This document shows, in pieces, positions 41,661 through 48,430 of a stretch of 64,000 nucleotides of DNA; the stretch's first letter is position 1; each line of letters starts with the position of its first letter. Position numbers and translations under genes: made by a program. The DNA is from Acholeplasmataceae bacterium. Its GTDB lineage: Bacteria; Bacillota_I; Bacilli_A; Acholeplasmatales; Acholeplasmataceae. The DNA lies in the NCBI GenBank assembly GCA_963675245.1, contig OY775910.1, forward strand, positions 800,001 through 864,000. The letters run 5' to 3'. Below the pieces are notes generated by a model that worked only from the letters and a program-made list of their open reading frames with translations, did not search any database and had not been told where the DNA came from.

Positions 41661-41838
41661 GTTTAAAACAAAGTCATACTTCGGTATGGCTTTTTATTTA
41701 GAAATCGCGATTTTCTAACATAATATACGTTAATCGAAAAATATTTATAAAAATTATGTTAAAAACGCCAAATTAAGCATAACTTTTGAATAAGAATACC
41801 CTGTAAAGTATAATGAATGTGCAATGAAGGAGGTCATT

Positions 41839-42927
41839 ATGACACTATTTAAAACATATGATCCGCTTAAGAAAAAGCAATTACAAATTCTTGATCCAAA
41901 AGGCAAGATTATTAATCCTGATCTTGAGCCATCTATCGATGATAAAACATTATTAAAACTTTATGACACTATGGTATTAGGACGTATTGCAGACATTAAA
42001 GCAATGCAATATCAACGTCAAGGACGCATGCTTACCTATGCCCCAAACCGTGGGCAAGAAGCCGCACAACTAGGTGCAGTCGCAGCCATGGAAAAACAAG
42101 ACTGGTTAGTCCCAGCTTTCCGTGAATTAAACGCGATGATTTATCGTGGCGTACCACTAGAAAAGATGTATCTATATTGGTATGGTAATGAATGGGGCTC
42201 ACATTTTGATGAAGATGTTCGTGTTCTACCAATTGATATCATTATTGGTTCACAAGTAAACCATGCTGCAGGTATCGCTTATGCAAGTAAAATTCAAAAG
42301 AAAAATGAAGTCGCATTAACATTTATTGGTGATGGTGGTACATCACATGGTGAATTTTATGAAGGCTTAAACTTTGGTGCGACATTTGATGTACCAATGG
42401 TTATTGTTATACAAAATAACCAATATGCCATTTCAACACCAAGACATAAAGCAACCAAAGCTGAAACATTAGCACAAAAAGCGATTGCTGCCGGTATTGA
42501 AGGTATTCAAGTCGATGGTAATGATATTTTAGCGATGTATGTGGCGACTAAATACGCGATTGACCACGCAAGAGCTGGTAAAGGTCCAGTCTTGATTGAA
42601 GCGGTCACGTATCGTTTAGGACCACACACAACGTCAGATGACCCTACGATTTATCGTAAGGATGAAGAAGTAGCTGAATGGGAAGCGAAAGATCCACTTC
42701 CACGCTTTAAAAAATATTTGATGGATAAGAAATTGTGGACAGAAGCGAAAGATAAGAAGTTACATGAAGAAAAAGCAGAATATGTGGGTGAAACATTTAG
42801 GAAGGTTGAAGCAAGTGGTCCATCAGAATTACTTGATATCTTCCAATATACTTATGCAGAAATGACACCACAATTAAAAGAACAATACGAAACACATAAG
42901 AAGTATTTAGAAGAAGGAGGTAAGTAA
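41839..42927 (+). CDS. pdhA: Pyruvate dehydrogenase E1 alpha
   Basis: GQEA, GDGGTS..F.EG.N, NNQYAIS, HTTSDDP. Confidence 0.93.
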   Translation: MTLFKTYDPLKKKQLQILDPKGKIINPDLEPSIDDKTLLKLYDTMVLGRIADIKAMQYQRQGRMLTYAPNRGQEAAQLGAVAAMEKQDWLVPAFRELNAMIYRGVPLEKMYLYWYGNEWGSHFDEDVRVLPIDIIIGSQVNHAAGIAYASKIQKKNEVALTFIGDGGTSHGEFYEGLNFGATFDVPMVIVIQNNQYAISTPRHKATKAETLAQKAIAAGIEGIQVDGNDILAMYVATKYAIDHARAGKGPVLIEAVTYRLGPHTTSDDPTIYRKDEEVAEWEAKDPLPRFKKYLMDKKLWTEAKDKKLHEEKAEYVGETFRKVEASGPSELLDIFQYTYAEMTPQLKEQYETHKKYLEEGGK

Positions 42928-42929
42928 TC

Positions 42930-43907
42930 ATGGCAGTTATTAATTTGTTAAAAGCTATCAATGAAGCACTTGACCTCAAATTAGCAGATGATCCTACAGT
43001 CGTCGTTTTTGGTGAAGATACCGGCTTTGAAGGTGGTGTTTTCCGTGTGACTGCAGGTCTACAAAAGAAATATGGTGAAGATCGTGTATTTGATACGCCA
43101 ATCGCTGAAGCAGCGATTACAGGTAGCGCGATTGGAATGGCTATTAACGGTTTAAAGCCGGTTGCTGAAATCCAATTTGATGGATTCGTATTCCCGGGGT
43201 ATACTGAAATTGTCACCCACATGGCGAGATATAGAAATCGTTCTCGTGGTCGTTATGGATTACCGATCGTTGTCAGATTCCCTGTTGGTGGTGGCATTAG
43301 AGCATTAGAACACCACTCAGAATCTATTGAAACATTATTGGGACATATTCCGGGATTAAAAGTTGTTTTCCCTTCAACACCATATGATGCGAAAGGGTTA
43401 ATGATCTCAGCGATTGAAGATCCAGATCCAGTCATTTTCATGGAACCAAAACGTATCTATCGTTCAGGTAAACAAGAAGTACCTGCAGGGATGTATCGTA
43501 TTCCAATCGGTAAAGCAAAAGTCGTTCAAAAAGGTGATGACATTACAGTCGTTGCTTGGGGTGCGATGATGCGTGAAGCCGAAAAAGCGATTAAGCTTTT
43601 AGAGGGAGATGGGATCAGCGTTGAATTAATTGATCTTAGAACAATTAGTCCAATTGACGAAGAAACCATTATTGAATCAGTGAAGAAGACCGGACGTTTC
43701 TTAGTCGTTCAAGAAGCGGTCAAGACGTATGGTCCAGGCGCTGAACTCATTTCTCTTGTAAATGAAAAAGCATTCTTGCATCTAGAAGCTGCACCAGCAC
43801 GTGTTACTGGATTTGATATTACGGTTCCACTCGCACGTGGTGAAATGTATCATTTTGTGCAACCAGAAAGGATTGCGGCTGAAATCAAAAAAGTCGTAAA
43901 CTTTTAG
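42930..43907 (+). CDS. pdhB: Pyruvate dehydrogenase E1 beta
   Basis: GED, GGVFRVT, DTPIAE, EHHSE. Confidence 0.93.
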   Translation: MAVINLLKAINEALDLKLADDPTVVVFGEDTGFEGGVFRVTAGLQKKYGEDRVFDTPIAEAAITGSAIGMAINGLKPVAEIQFDGFVFPGYTEIVTHMARYRNRSRGRYGLPIVVRFPVGGGIRALEHHSESIETLLGHIPGLKVVFPSTPYDAKGLMISAIEDPDPVIFMEPKRIYRSGKQEVPAGMYRIPIGKAKVVQKGDDITVVAWGAMMREAEKAIKLLEGDGISVELIDLRTISPIDEETIIESVKKTGRFLVVQEAVKTYGPGAELISLVNEKAFLHLEAAPARVTGFDITVPLARGEMYHFVQPERIAAEIKKVVNF

Positions 43908-43918
43908 GGGGTAATGTT

Positions 43919-45502
43919 ATGTATGAATTTAAATTTGCGGATATCGGTGAAGGTATCCATGAAGGTAATATCTTAGAATGGAAATTCAAAGAAGGCGACG
44001 CTGTCAATGAAGGCGATACATTAGTGATCGTTGAAACAGATAAGGTCAATGCAGAAATTCCATCACCAGTCAACGGTAAGGTCCACCAAATCAATTTTAA
44101 GGTTGGAGAAACGGTTCATGTTGGTGAAGTGCTTGTCGTATTAGATGACGGTACTGCTGAACCAGCACCAAAGAAAGAACCACAAAAAGAAGTATCTAAA
44201 AAAGAAGAACCTAAAAAAGAATCTAAAGCACCAGAAGTCACGGGTGGATTTGAGTTTAAGTTTGCTGACATTGGTGAAGGGATTCATGAGGGTAATATTT
44301 TAGAGTGGAAATATAAGGAAGGTGACGATGTTAAAGAAGGCGAAACATTAGTCATCGTTGAAACAGATAAAGTCAATGCTGAACTTCCATCACCAGTTGA
44401 GGGTAAGATTTCTAAAATTAATTTTAAAGCTGGTGAAACCGTTCATGTCGGTGAAGTATTAGTCGTTATCGGTGGTAATGCTAAACCACAAGAAGAGAAA
44501 GCACCATTAAGCGAAGGCGATGATGAAAAAGCAGCAGGCGTTATTGGTGAAATCGAAGTTTCCCATGATGTGATGGCTTCGAGCACAGAACATGAAGAAG
44601 AAAAACCTACAAAAAAATCAATGGGTAAGGTGTTAGCTACACCAGTCGCTAGAAAATTAGCAAAAGATTTAGGTGTTGACATTCAAACCGTTAAAGGTAC
44701 GGGTGAGAATGGTCGCGTCATGAAAGATGACATCAAAAAAGCAGCTAATAAACCTCAAGGGGCAACACATGTCAGTTCACCTAAAGTGAGTGTATCAACA
44801 CAAGGTGATGTTGAACTTGTGAAGATCACAAACCTTAGAAAAGCTATTGTTAAAGCTATGACGTTATCTAAACAAGTCATTCCTCATACGGTTTTACTTG
44901 ATGAAGTCAACGTCGATAAATTAGTTGATTTAAGAAAACAAGTGAAAGCACAAGCGGCTGCACAAGACATCAAGTTAACATATATGGCATTCATTATGAA
45001 GGCTGTTGTTTTAGCTCTTCAAAAATTCCCTTGGTTTAACGCAAGCTTTGACCAAGAAAACGAACAAATGGTATTAAAGAAATTCTATAACATTGGTATG
45101 GCGGTTGATACACCTGATGGTTTAATCGTTCCTAATATTAAAGATGCCAATCAAAAGAGCATCTTAGAATTAGCGAAAGACATTCAAACTGTTGGTGATT
45201 TAACTAAATCAAGAAAGATTCAACTCTCTGCGTTACAGAATTCAACCTTTAGTATAACGAACTTTGGTGCTGCAGGTATCGCTGCAGGTACTCCAATCAT
45301 TAATCATCCAGAAGTTGGTATTCTAGGTGTTGGTAAGATTGAGCAAAAAGCTGTTGTTATTGATGGCGAAATTAAAGCTGCTTACACCCTACCATTATCA
45401 TTAGCAGTCGATCACCGTGTGATTGATGGCGCTGATGCTGGAAGATTCTTAAACTATCTCAAGACGTTGCTTAGTGATCCGCTCTTGTTATTGTTAAATT
45501 GA
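43919..45502 (+). CDS. pdhC: Dihydrolipoamide acetyltransferase E2 with two lipoyl domains
   Basis: Duplicated FKFADIGEG...ETDKV; ATPVARKLA; DHRVIDG. Confidence 0.94.
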   Translation: MYEFKFADIGEGIHEGNILEWKFKEGDAVNEGDTLVIVETDKVNAEIPSPVNGKVHQINFKVGETVHVGEVLVVLDDGTAEPAPKKEPQKEVSKKEEPKKESKAPEVTGGFEFKFADIGEGIHEGNILEWKYKEGDDVKEGETLVIVETDKVNAELPSPVEGKISKINFKAGETVHVGEVLVVIGGNAKPQEEKAPLSEGDDEKAAGVIGEIEVSHDVMASSTEHEEEKPTKKSMGKVLATPVARKLAKDLGVDIQTVKGTGENGRVMKDDIKKAANKPQGATHVSSPKVSVSTQGDVELVKITNLRKAIVKAMTLSKQVIPHTVLLDEVNVDKLVDLRKQVKAQAAAQDIKLTYMAFIMKAVVLALQKFPWFNASFDQENEQMVLKKFYNIGMAVDTPDGLIVPNIKDANQKSILELAKDIQTVGDLTKSRKIQLSALQNSTFSITNFGAAGIAAGTPIINHPEVGILGVGKIEQKAVVIDGEIKAAYTLPLSLAVDHRVIDGADAGRFLNYLKTLLSDPLLLLLN

Positions 45503-45633
45503 GGTGACTAACTATTAAAAGTCAAGTACTTTTAGTAGATAAACTGTAAAAACCTCCAATAGCCATAATTTTTAGAGGTTAGCCATATAACTGGATGATT
45601 TTATGACTTAACCGCCACAGTTTAAGTAATCAA

Positions 45634-46794
45634 TTATTGTAGTTTAGAGGAATCAAAATCTTCCTGATGTGTTTCGAGATGATGAATGACTCTAATGAGT
45701 TTTTTTGAAAGATGAACCAGTGCGACACGATGATGTTTACCCTCTTGTTTCTTCTTGGTGTAGTAGTCGTAGAAGACGGGGTTATAGATCATAACCATCA
45801 TTGAGATATTGATGAGTGTTGCTCTTAGGTACTTGCTGCCACGTTTAACCAGTTTACCTGTTGAAGACATGGTGCCAGACTGTCTGATGGTTGAATCCAG
45901 ACCTGCATAGGATAACATTTCAGCGGGATTGGAGAAAAGTGAAATATCACCATATTCTGAAACGATGACAGCTGCTGAAATGATTCCGATACCTTTAATG
46001 GTTTGAATCTTAGTTGGATATCGATGCATTAAAGAAATGATCTGTTTCTCAGTTTCTTCGATATCTTGATTGAGTTTCTCAACATAAGAAATTGAAGTCT
46101 TAAGTTTGAATAGTTGATGATCTTGTGTCACACCAATGGTTGATTTTGCGAGTTCCTTCAGTTTAACAAACTTCGGATAATTGAATTTACCCATCGATCG
46201 TTTACGAAGCTTATCGAAGTGGTCATCAGTCATCCTTGCTATTTTATCCGGTGATGAAAAGCGCTTCAAGATGTATAAAGATGTATCACTATAGCCTTGT
46301 TCTTGCATAAAAGGTTTGAATTCAGGAAAGATGACATCTAAGACCTTGGTCATCATATTGTAGTGTTTCGTCCGAATTGAGATGAGTTTAAAACGTAACC
46401 TGGTCAGTGATTTTAAAGCACTTATATGATAAGATTGATGATGATAGGCTTTGTAGTCTACAGATCTCATATAAGTTGAAATCATTTGTGCATCTTTCTT
46501 ATCCGTCTTTGTTTTTCTCAGTGAATGGGCTTCTCCAAACTTCTTCACGAGAAAAGGATTAATCTCCATGAATGAATATCCATGGAGGATAAGAAATGAC
46601 TTAAGGTTTTCTCCATAATGACCTGTGGCCTCTAAGCCTATTATCATTTCTTGCTTGACTAAAGAGTTAAAGTATCCTAATAGTTCTTTAAACCCAGACT
46701 GACTGTTCTCAAATGAGAACTGATGGCTAACTGTTTCGGTGGCGATGAAACAGTCATGCTTGTACTTTGAAATATCGATGCCGATATAGATCAT
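45634..46794 (-). CDS. IS110 DEDD recombinase/transposase
   Basis: GIDISK, LEATGHY, KTDKKDA (RuvC-like DEDD); YAGL...QSG Tnp domain; GGAGGT RBS. Confidence 0.95.
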   Translation of the reverse strand: MIYIGIDISKYKHDCFIATETVSHQFSFENSQSGFKELLGYFNSLVKQEMIIGLEATGHYGENLKSFLILHGYSFMEINPFLVKKFGEAHSLRKTKTDKKDAQMISTYMRSVDYKAYHHQSYHISALKSLTRLRFKLISIRTKHYNMMTKVLDVIFPEFKPFMQEQGYSDTSLYILKRFSSPDKIARMTDDHFDKLRKRSMGKFNYPKFVKLKELAKSTIGVTQDHQLFKLKTSISYVEKLNQDIEETEKQIISLMHRYPTKIQTIKGIGIISAAVIVSEYGDISLFSNPAEMLSYAGLDSTIRQSGTMSSTGKLVKRGSKYLRATLINISMMVMIYNPVFYDYYTKKKQEGKHHRVALVHLSKKLIRVIHHLETHQEDFDSSKLQ

Positions 46795-46819
46795 AAGTAC
46801 ACCTCCAAGAATTAAATTT

Positions 46820-47040
46820 GTACGTGTGGTAAGTCCAGCAGCGTCTTTATCTCATAATCATGTAAAAAGCGTCTTCCGCTAACTAACTATTGCTGATTAA
46901 AATAAAGACCGTGGTAAGCGTCACCTCAAAATAGTCTAGGTTATAAAAATATGACACAGATCCACAGTACATTATTAGTATATTAAATTAGAACGAAAGG
47001 AGTAAAGATTTAAAGACTTAAGTAACTAACTTAATACACT
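46820..47040 (-). ncRNA. Putative IS110 bridge RNA (target-binding loop ~46909-46967, donor-binding loop ~46843-46909)
   Basis: Four guide segments match the flanking target and the IS ends, enclosed by stems CTGTGG/CCACGG and GTCTTTAT/ATAAAGAC; boundaries approximate. Confidence 0.8.
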
Positions 47041-47059
47041 TTAAATCTTACATGATTAT

Positions 47060-48430
47060 ATGGCAACTTATGATGTATTAATATTAGGTGGCGGTCCAGG
47101 TGGTTATGTCGCCGCGATTAAAGCTGCTCAAAATGGATTAAAAACAGCACTGATTGAAAAAGAAGTAGTTGGAGGTATATGTTTAAATCACGGATGTATC
47201 CCAACAAAAGCATTATTGAAAAGTGCTAAAGTATATAAACAATTTAAACACGCGTCTGATTATGGTATCACGCTAAAAGGTGAGGTTGATTATGATTGGA
47301 CGAGTATGCTTAAAAGAAAAGATAAAGTCGTTAAGCAACTAACAGGCGGTGTTGCGGGATTACTTAAGAAGAATGGTGTTGATGTTTTTAACGGTTTTGG
47401 TGAAGTAGTATCTTCAACGAAAGTTAAGGTTAATGATCAAACACTTGAAACAAAAAATCTCATATTAGCAACAGGTGCCTCACCTGTCATTCCACCCATC
47501 CCTGGATTAAAAGAAGCATATGTAAAAGGGGTTGTTGTAACATCAAGAGAATTACTCCAAATTAAAGAAGCACCAACATCACTTGTCATTATTGGCGGTG
47601 GTGTCATTGGCGTAGAATTCGCAACCATCTTTAATGCACTTGGTTCTAAAATTACAATTATTGAAATGCAACCTGGCATTCTTCCACCAATGGATGATGC
47701 GATACGCACGCAATATACAAAACTTCTTAAAAAAGAAGGCATTGAGATTTTAACAAGTGCTGAAGTGAAAAAGGTTGATGATGGTACAGTTTATTATGAA
47801 CTCGATGGTAAACAACATCAAATCACAGGTGATACGGTCTTAGTCGCGGTTGGTATGCGTGCTAATTCTAAAGGTCTTGAGACGTTAAATCTTAAGATGA
47901 ACCGTGCAGCTGTAGACACAAACGATAAGCTTGAAACAAGTGTACCTCATGTGTACGCAATAGGTGATTTGAATGGGAAGTATATGCTCGCACATGTGGC
48001 ATCTCATGAAGGTGTGATCGCGATTGAAAATATTCTTGGACACGATAAGTCTATGAATTATGATCGCGTGCCTAACGCTGTTTATGGCTCACCAGAAATC
48101 GCGATGATTGGTAAAACCGAACGTGAACTAAAAGAACAAAATATTCCTTATAAAGCATCAACGTTCCCACTTATTGGTAATGGTAAATCTTTAGCAGACG
48201 GACAAAGCGAAGGGTTTATTAAATTATTAGTCAGTGAAAAGTATAAAGAAATATTAGGTGCACACATCTTGGCGTATAACGCATCTGATTTGATTGCTGA
48301 ATTAGGTGTTACGATGGAACTTGAAGGTACTGCTTATGAAATAGCGAATACCATTCACCCACACCCAACGCTATCAGAAATTGTGATGGAAGCGGCAGAA
48401 GGCGCAATCGGTAAACCTATTCATATTTAA
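47060..48430 (+). CDS. pdhD: Dihydrolipoamide dehydrogenase E3
   Basis: GGGPGGY, GGICLNHGCIPTK, GGGVIG.E, HPHPTLSE. Confidence 0.95.
   Translation: MATYDVLILGGGPGGYVAAIKAAQNGLKTALIEKEVVGGICLNHGCIPTKALLKSAKVYKQFKHASDYGITLKGEVDYDWTSMLKRKDKVVKQLTGGVAGLLKKNGVDVFNGFGEVVSSTKVKVNDQTLETKNLILATGASPVIPPIPGLKEAYVKGVVVTSRELLQIKEAPTSLVIIGGGVIGVEFATIFNALGSKITIIEMQPGILPPMDDAIRTQYTKLLKKEGIEILTSAEVKKVDDGTVYYELDGKQHQITGDTVLVAVGMRANSKGLETLNLKMNRAAVDTNDKLETSVPHVYAIGDLNGKYMLAHVASHEGVIAIENILGHDKSMNYDRVPNAVYGSPEIAMIGKTERELKEQNIPYKASTFPLIGNGKSLADGQSEGFIKLLVSEKYKEILGAHILAYNASDLIAELGVTMELEGTAYEIANTIHPHPTLSEIVMEAAEGAIGKPIHI

Follow-up and report, generated by a model that had tools for sequence, protein, structure and literature searches.

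Background

Insertion between the Shine-Dalgarno (SD) sequence and the start codon has been known in the IS110 family of insertion sequences (IS) since the 1990s. IS900 and IS901 of Mycobacterium avium insert there in a single orientation, according to the account in Plague (2010, PMC2942039, citing Doran 1997 and Inglis 2003). The target motif of IS900 is given as CATGNNNNNNTCTCCTT, and its insertion is called 'stealthy', in passages of Conde et al. (2021, PMC8141618). The element described here adds another case. It lies between pdhC and pdhD, two genes of a pyruvate dehydrogenase operon, in an Acholeplasmataceae bacterium (assembly GCA_963675245.1). The window, that is the whole stretch of DNA analysed, is 64,000 nucleotides long and covers positions 800,001 to 864,000 of contig OY775910.1.

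The element resembles IS900 and IS901 in its oriented SD-to-start insertion; the likeness concerns target-site behaviour and is not a comparison of transposases. The IS900 motif, in the form in which the source prints it, has the same layout as the CAT-N5-CA-CCTC of this element. Parts of the IS900 literature also describe a long antisense open reading frame (ORF), hed, which is said to use host signals, whereas here there is no plus-strand ORF of at least 60 aa within 45507-47052. The hosts are low-GC Mycoplasmatota and Bacillota, unlike the Mycobacterium avium host of IS900 and IS901. The present element also has an outward-facing SD-like motif and a hairpin at the end that adjoins the host gene; no description of such a pair for IS900 was found in the literature searched.

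IS621 and this element share a DEDD recombinase and an upstream RNA with target- and donor-binding loops, with the core lying within the guides; in both, the left guide matches, and the right guide is complementary to, the top strand (IS621 as described in passages of PMC11208160). For the IS621 system (Durrant et al. 2024, PMC11208160; Hiraizumi 2024), the same passages describe base pairing of the bottom strand to the left target guide and of the top strand to the right one, the core included. IS621 targets repetitive extragenic palindromic (REP) elements and has a CT core, whereas here the element strand has CA as its core. Other differences of this element are a longer right target guide (8-10 nt), UA at the core of the 5' guides, which gives a U-G wobble, and an RNA whose start lies about 85-110 nt in from the left end, with a hairpin in front of it.

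IS492 of Pseudoalteromonas atlantica is, like this element, an IS110-family member. It reportedly excises with circle formation and is said to form a precise, gene-restoring phase-variation switch. IS492 interrupts and inactivates a coding sequence, whereas the present element leaves ORFs intact and its insertion is tolerated by essential genes. A parallel from outside the family is phage T4, in which a distant SD is brought to the AUG of genes 38 and 25 by an intervening stem-loop. Compared with T4, the SD and hairpin here would be borne by a mobile element and donated to whichever gene adjoins.

As a whole, the observations are very probably best explained by an RNA-guided IS110-family element that is hard-wired to bacterial translation-initiation sites and leaves the host gene expressed. 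The right target guide (3' side of the target loop) is an SD-like segment that pairs with the complementary strand of the SD, and the left target guide (5' side of the loop) resembles the complement of the spacer and start codon. Strand exchange takes place at the 2-nt core with which the SD ends, TG in this element and AG in sister subfamilies. The element always lands in one orientation, 5-6 nt upstream of the start codon, with the transposase directed away from the gene, so that no reading frame is broken. These targeting steps, including the separation of pdhD from its SD, are demonstrated by the copies, junctions and guides described below.

Results and Discussion

The insertion between pdhC and pdhD

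The host genome is one 1.63-Mb contig and is 99.96% complete. The window has a pdhA-pdhB-pdhC-pdhD operon encoding E1 alpha (41824-42927), E1 beta (42930-43907), E2 (43919-45502) and E3 (47060-48430). The region between E2 and E3 holds an IS110-family insertion sequence of 1,546 bp with a DEDD transposase and a two-loop bridge RNA. The features of the locus are as follows.

43919-45502, plus strand: pdhC (E2) ORF with 2-oxoacid_dh, lipoyl and E3-binding domains
45500-45502, plus strand: stop codon TGA of pdhC, overlapping the pdhD SD within TTGAGGTG
45501-45506, plus strand: original pdhD Shine-Dalgarno GAGGTG, with an uninterrupted counterpart in 17 of 18 relatives
45505-45506, plus strand: left core copy TG, the final two bases of the original SD
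45507-47052, minus strand: body of the insertion sequence, with four near-identical copies in the genome
45634-46794, minus strand: transposase (bridge recombinase), 386 aa; PF01548 (E=3e-36, 125 bits) and PF02371 (E=5e-22, 79 bits)
47053-47054, plus strand: right core copy TG
47055-47062, plus strand: ATTAT, the original 5-nt spacer, followed by ATG, the start codon of pdhD, which begins at 47060
47060-48430, plus strand: pdhD/lpdA, dihydrolipoyl dehydrogenase (E3), frame intact; TIGR01350 at 557 bits (cut-off 409), and Pfam

A sequence-only reading of this DNA had placed an IS110 element at the locus, and the two Pfam domains of the 386-aa ORF, a DEDD RuvC-like N-terminal domain and a Tnp C-terminal domain, bear this out. 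By sequence matches in the PDB, the nearest relatives of the transposase with a solved structure are the ISCro4 transposase (E=1e-16) and the IS621 transposase (chain 8wt6, E=1.7e-15).

In 17 of the 18 relatives the locus is free of the element, and the pdhC stop with its SD is followed after 5-11 nt by the pdhD start. The 18th (G019, of another genus) has an 84%-identical element at the same pdhC-pdhD site. At the locus in the window, the element has separated pdhD from the SD that overlaps the pdhC stop. The same reading had stated that occupied pdhD lacks an SD near its ATG, and by inspection of the sequence none of GGAG, GAGG or AGGA occurs within 20 nt 5' of that ATG.

Ends and core of the element

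The four copies in the genome differ at 2 positions within the element. All have ..GAGG-TG on one side and ..ACA-TG, a 5-nt spacer and ATG on the other, with the spacers ATTAT, ACTGT, ACTAT and TTATT. Since the copies are identical through the second TG and diverge immediately after it, the core is most simply read as TG and the element as 45507-47052. The closest relative (G006) has an unoccupied glnS site, GAGGTGTTATT-ATG (..AACTGTGAGGTGTTATT-ATGG), which equals the two flanks of the glnS copy (L004) joined at TG. A TG core is therefore favoured over the TA core proposed earlier, which is off by 4 nt. The core is also tracked by the guides: sister subfamilies with CT instead of CA at the junction (element strand) carry AG where TG stands otherwise, in the right guides for target and donor alike, which supports the same choice. 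The same core dinucleotide occurs at both junctions (CA/CA or CT/CT) in 39 of 40 cleanly read copies. The exception, L031 (G117:C79), has CT at the left junction and CA at the right, while all its sister copies have CA. It looks like a core mismatch that was fixed on one side following insertion into a GAGGAG-type site; since a mismatch inside the core fits these junctions, it supports TG. Terminal inverted repeats are absent, and each junction has one core copy without a longer duplication.

The empty pdhD site is GAGG-TG-ATTAT-ATG, with an SD-to-start spacing of 7 nt, which agrees with the 7-9 nt usual in the genome. The empty site given earlier, GAGGTGACTATATG, is likewise shifted by 4 nt, and the G006 glnS site supports the corrected form. 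The earlier 14-mer has no exact match elsewhere in the genome and one site with 1 mismatch. The pdhC-pdhD junctions of relatives were tried as evidence for the core and set aside: their spacers are too divergent to settle it, and the glnS site did so instead. A repeat contig from a public sequencing run covers 45501-47054.

Target-site choice across the clade

Copies were collected from the same order, in which 91 of 307 genomes have a transposase relative (E<=1e-20), and extra copies were added from complete genomes. The set comprises 47 copies with a defined left junction, whose transposases are 35-100% identical. An ATG or GTG that opens a long ORF (at least 50 codons, or running off the locus) lies 0-10 nt from the core in 44 of the 47, and at 5-6 nt in 34 of those 44. 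Random positions pass the same start-codon test in 1,939 of 20,000 cases (9.7%). All four copies of the window's own genome have the start codon 5 nt from the core, in front of ORFs of 109 to at least 501 aa. The check that the sequence-only reading had proposed, that other copies also lie between SD and ATG, thus came out in its favour, as did its claim that the element is programmed against SD/start sites and avoids breaking ORFs. So many landing sites that break no ORF are available because the bridge RNAs target a signal found before many genes of an SD-using genome.

The bridge RNA and its guides are located as follows.

46820-46970, minus strand: bridge RNA with two stem/internal-loop/stem modules (RNAalifold, 33 relatives)
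46945-46956, minus strand: left target guide, RNA UGUCAUAUUUUU, containing CAU, the complement of the start codon
46922-46930, minus strand: right target guide, RNA UUUGAGGUG, which has the SD sequence and then the complement of the core
46881-46891, minus strand: left donor guide AAUAGUUAGUU, matching the right end of the element
46858-46865, minus strand: right donor guide UUACAUGA, complementary to the core and the left end of the element
46977-47006, minus strand: promoter-like TTTACT-18-TATACT upstream of the bridge RNA (9/12 in a consensus scan, which is not evidence of function)

Across the 33 relatives, RNAalifold of the region from the left end to the transposase gene gives 23 pairs, of which 12 have compensatory changes; such changes occur, among other places, in the two inner stems and in the donor module's outer stem. 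Rfam 15 gave no relevant match at E<=1, the sole match being a chance snoRNA (E=0.45), and the presence of a bridge-RNA model in Rfam 15 was not established. Both guide strings named earlier are present in the non-coding region upstream of the transposase and are real guide segments: plus-strand GTCACCTCAA at 46920-46929 corresponds to RNA UUGAGGUGAC, and TATGACA at 46950-46956 lies inside the left target guide. The donor guides AAUAGUUAGU and UUACAUG match the element ends.

Covariation links each guide to its own target, the right target guide following the local SD variant. When guides were swapped between types (2,000 permutations), the match of the right target guide to its target fell from 6.89 of 9 positions to 5.31 +/- 0.15 (maximum 5.89), and the mean match of the left target guide fell from 7.35 to 6.47 +/- 0.18 (maximum 7.02). 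The guide variants GAGGUG, GGAGUUG, GGGAGUG, AGGGGUG, GAAGGUG and AGGAG each adjoin the matching SD variant, and CAT is present in 26 of 31 distinct left target guides.

Three points weigh against this reading of target choice. The remaining 3 of the 47 sites have an ATG at 4-6 nt, but it opens ORFs of just 7-21 codons. The copies come from related genomes and are not statistically independent, so that the figures overstate their independence. The matches of the left target guide are modest, and much of their signal is a shared T-rich/CAT consensus.

A wider scan with one genome per species found 80 further loci in Acholeplasmataceae, Izemoplasmatales, Erysipelotrichaceae, Bacilli, Clostridia and other records. 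The RNA anchor was located in 63 of the 80. Right target guides could be extracted from 62, and 48 of them hold GGAG, GAGG or AGGA while the other 14 hold weaker G-rich variants. An opposite-strand gene start lies 75-115 nt from the anchor in 34 of 48, although this test is rough and may pick alternative starts inside the element. In bridge RNAs of relatives from other classes (L113-L176), the left target guide has CTAT in 38 of 49 and CAT in 3 of 49; its start-codon part may be read there with a bulge or in a different register.

A distant IS110 group in the same order (L078-L085, 25-28% identical) has ends ..TTGACTTCCTTTATCTAATTTTTT and an upstream non-coding region of more than 420 nt. Its flanks are not SD-like (the right ends of this outgroup stop at ..ATCTAATTTTTT), and it appears to have a different target class.

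Genes behind the insertions

The four copies in the genome precede pdhD, a GDSL hydrolase gene, a gene for a small secreted-looking protein, and glnS. The last (copy L004) is the only glutaminyl-tRNA synthetase (GlnRS) gene in the genome. GatB was not found in this 99.96%-complete single-contig genome, while a control search was positive in 12 of 14 reference genomes. Since GlnRS is encoded by this gene alone and GatB was not found, Gln-tRNA should depend on glnS. In 8 of 9 other species of the genus, an intact GAGGTG-N5-ATG stands before glnS. The ninth species, G009, has a different clade member between SD and ATG of glnS (L093, G009:C23); the contig ends inside this element, and the order-wide protein search had scored G009 as having no transposase match.

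Insertions of the clade in relatives also precede trpS, gltX, truB, a ribonucleotide reductase subunit gene, rlmN, the chorismate synthase gene and, in two genomes, the nicotinate phosphoribosyltransferase (NAPRTase) gene. The NAPRTase insertions are L066 (G001) and L067 (G045), and those at pdhD are L001 (G000) and L034 (G019). The NAPRTase and pdhD orthologues were thus hit independently by different subfamilies in different genera.

The insertion cannot simply turn a gene off, because the sole glnS of a genome in which GatB was not found, the glnS of a second species, trpS and gltX are all occupied. The host gene would therefore stay expressed, since the same insertion is tolerated before glnS, trpS and gltX, which are genes that must be made.

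The sequence-only reading had drawn another consequence from the lost SD, namely that the insertion silences pdhD until a scarless excision brings it back, so that E3 and pyruvate dehydrogenase would be under a possible reversible switch. The bare 20 nt before the occupied pdhD ATG would suit such a switch, and one core copy is kept on each side, so that a precise excision would leave the site as it was. For IS492, such excision with circle formation is reportedly documented, according to a title among the references of PMC11187229. The occupied synthetase genes speak against it, and pdhD is not the only E3 gene of the genome: a second one is present, 42% identical. Among Logan contigs from 4 runs (2 samples, 1 study), the IS-pdhD junction occurs for both samples, and the two flanks of the element are not linked directly in any contig; there is also no empty-site or circle-junction contig, although contigs break at the repeat and hide rare forms. 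Excision of IS621 is less efficient than insertion, according to PMC13626964, and a preprint describes IS621 excision as acting mainly by single-strand copy-out that leaves the donor site intact; either behaviour argues against a switch. Therefore, the proposed switch is very improbable.

The second E3 gene bears on another explanation, in which the insertion lowers or abolishes PdhD and is tolerated only because of that gene, so that the pdhD copy is mildly harmful and non-switching. The gene is part of a second 2-oxoacid dehydrogenase operon outside the window (G000:C1:894000-902000, L086), which encodes a fused E1 alpha-beta of 822 aa, an E2 of 408 aa and its own dihydrolipoyl dehydrogenase of 456 aa (TIGR01350, 486 bits). 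This enzyme is a possible back-up for pdhD, and the effective SD spacing of about 12 nt, described below, would be suboptimal. A loss of PdhD leaves glnS, trpS and gltX unexplained, and the pdhD site is occupied in another genus too. It is therefore unlikely that the insertion is tolerated in this way.

Outward-facing SD and terminal hairpin

The element end that adjoins the host gene has two features that may bear on how the gene stays expressed.

46996-47002, plus strand: outward-facing SD-like AAAGGAG pointing at pdhD, giving the best anti-SD duplex of the element's final 110 nt
47002-47051, plus strand: terminal hairpin between the outward SD and the element end, minimum free energy -13.0 kcal/mol

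Over the last ~55 nt of the element, the order toward the host gene is AAAGGAG, the hairpin and an A, followed by the TG core, the 5-nt spacer and ATG. The best anti-SD match is at the position of the outward SD in 48 of 48 copies (dG -5.9 to -9.3); the median is -3.1 on the opposite strand and -4.3 in shuffled sequences. In linear sequence, this motif lies 43-61 nt from the start codon in the 48 copies. With the hairpin closed the distance becomes 8-15 nt, and 11-13 nt in 41 of the 48. The hairpin is present in every subfamily with a different sequence in each, and 3 of 13 base-stem pairs have compensatory changes within subfamilies. The layout of GAAAGGAG or GAAAGGGA plus a hairpin is also found in 27 relatives from other classes. 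Since there is no start codon between the motif and the element end, the outward SD could serve only the host gene.

These features suggest that the element end carries its own outward SD and then a hairpin in replacement of the lost SD, and that the folded hairpin would bring this SD to about 11-13 nt from the host ATG. The tolerance of the insertions may be due to such a relay, which is put forward tentatively from the sequences. More tentatively again, the clade could be regarded as a 'stealth' parasite of initiation sites that severs a gene from its SD and donates a replacement AAAGGAG by way of a conserved hairpin.

Several observations detract from the relay. The hairpin-closed distance of 11-13 nt exceeds the 7-9 nt usual in the genome, where only 127 of 607 natural SD matches are at 10-13 nt. 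The gene-sense strand of the hairpin is the more stable one in only 10 of 31 subfamily ends; a strand asymmetry in hairpin energy was tried as a line of evidence and dropped, as it gives no gene-sense preference. The complement of the motif, in the subfamily to which the window's element belongs, overlaps the -35-like box of the bridge-RNA promoter TTTACT-18-TATACT.

The last two observations would fit an account that keeps the targeting but assigns AAAGGAG and the hairpin to functions of the element, with host genes using SD-independent or weak initiation. Possible roles are a -35 or upstream region of the bridge-RNA promoter, a -10 of a circle-junction promoter, a terminator on the element strand acting as a weak insulator, or a part in folding a single-stranded circle. 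Besides the promoter overlap, the hairpin arm includes a candidate junction -10 (TAAGAT, TATACT or TATAAT), the fold of the element-sense strand is equally good or better in 21 of 31 subfamily ends, and a pyrimidine tract follows the hairpin on the element strand like the U-tract of a terminator. On the other hand, the motif is conserved in CT-core subfamilies, although their bridge-RNA promoter has an extended -10 (TGTTATAAT) and the motif is 12 nt upstream of it and not at a -35. The missing start codon between motif and element end also speaks for the host gene as the only user of the SD, and base-stem wobbles are G-U in the gene sense in 5 cells and in the element sense in 1, which are small numbers. 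An element-serving role is thus possible but somewhat doubtful.

Two further ideas about this end were rejected. The last A of the element and the core TG form an ATG (47052-47054). In L002 and L003 the ORF that begins with this ATG has 3 codons, and its stop TGA overlaps the host start codon (ATGA), while at pdhD the ORF is out of frame and has 9 codons (47052-47081). Such a mini-ORF in the CA-core subfamilies was rejected as a general mechanism because the AG-core subfamilies do not have this ATG. In the other idea, the right target guide or the transposase SD would be the pairing partner of the motif's complementary pyrimidine stretch. The guide in the window does not fit this (GAGG vs CUCC), and such anti-SD pairing would also work against a junction promoter.

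Other features of the element

Two features near the right end, and one further copy, are described here.

45520-45525, minus strand: TTGACT, candidate -35 of a circle-junction promoter, a function assigned from sequence
45551-45580, minus strand: hairpin and T run 3' of the transposase stop, terminator-like on the element strand only (read from the sequence; the consensus scan did not call it)

Joining the two ends would put TTGACT 17 nt from TAAGAT (47045-47050), which makes a candidate circle-junction promoter. The geometry of TTGACT, 17 nt and TAAGAT, TATACT or TATAAT is present in all sister subfamilies inspected, and TTGACT is conserved in all relatives inspected. At copy L028 (G008:C1:1129234-1133391), a decayed second IS110 transposase gene, 74% identical and with 6 stop codons, adjoins the right end.

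Implications

No bridge-RNA-level account of SD targeting was found in the literature searched, although supplements of bridge-RNA papers may list such targets; nor was any description of an element-borne replacement SD found there. The only lead here that is truly novel is the conserved pair of outward SD and hairpin. The targeting explains at the RNA level what was observed for IS900 and IS901, and widens that observation to many kinds of low-GC bacteria. The guide layout, with a long right target guide, a TG or AG core in the SD and a U-G wobble in the 5' guides, offers natural variants for bridge-recombinase engineering. Genome annotators may expect genes whose SD sits 1.5 kb upstream.

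If the SD relay is true, mobile elements would have a new means of neutralising the damage of their own insertion, and the relay would also be a portable hairpin-bridged module for translation initiation. The clade could then colonise the 5' ends of essential genes such as glnS, trpS, gltX and pdhD cheaply across Mycoplasmatota and Bacillota, and the occupied genes may come under structure-dependent translational control.

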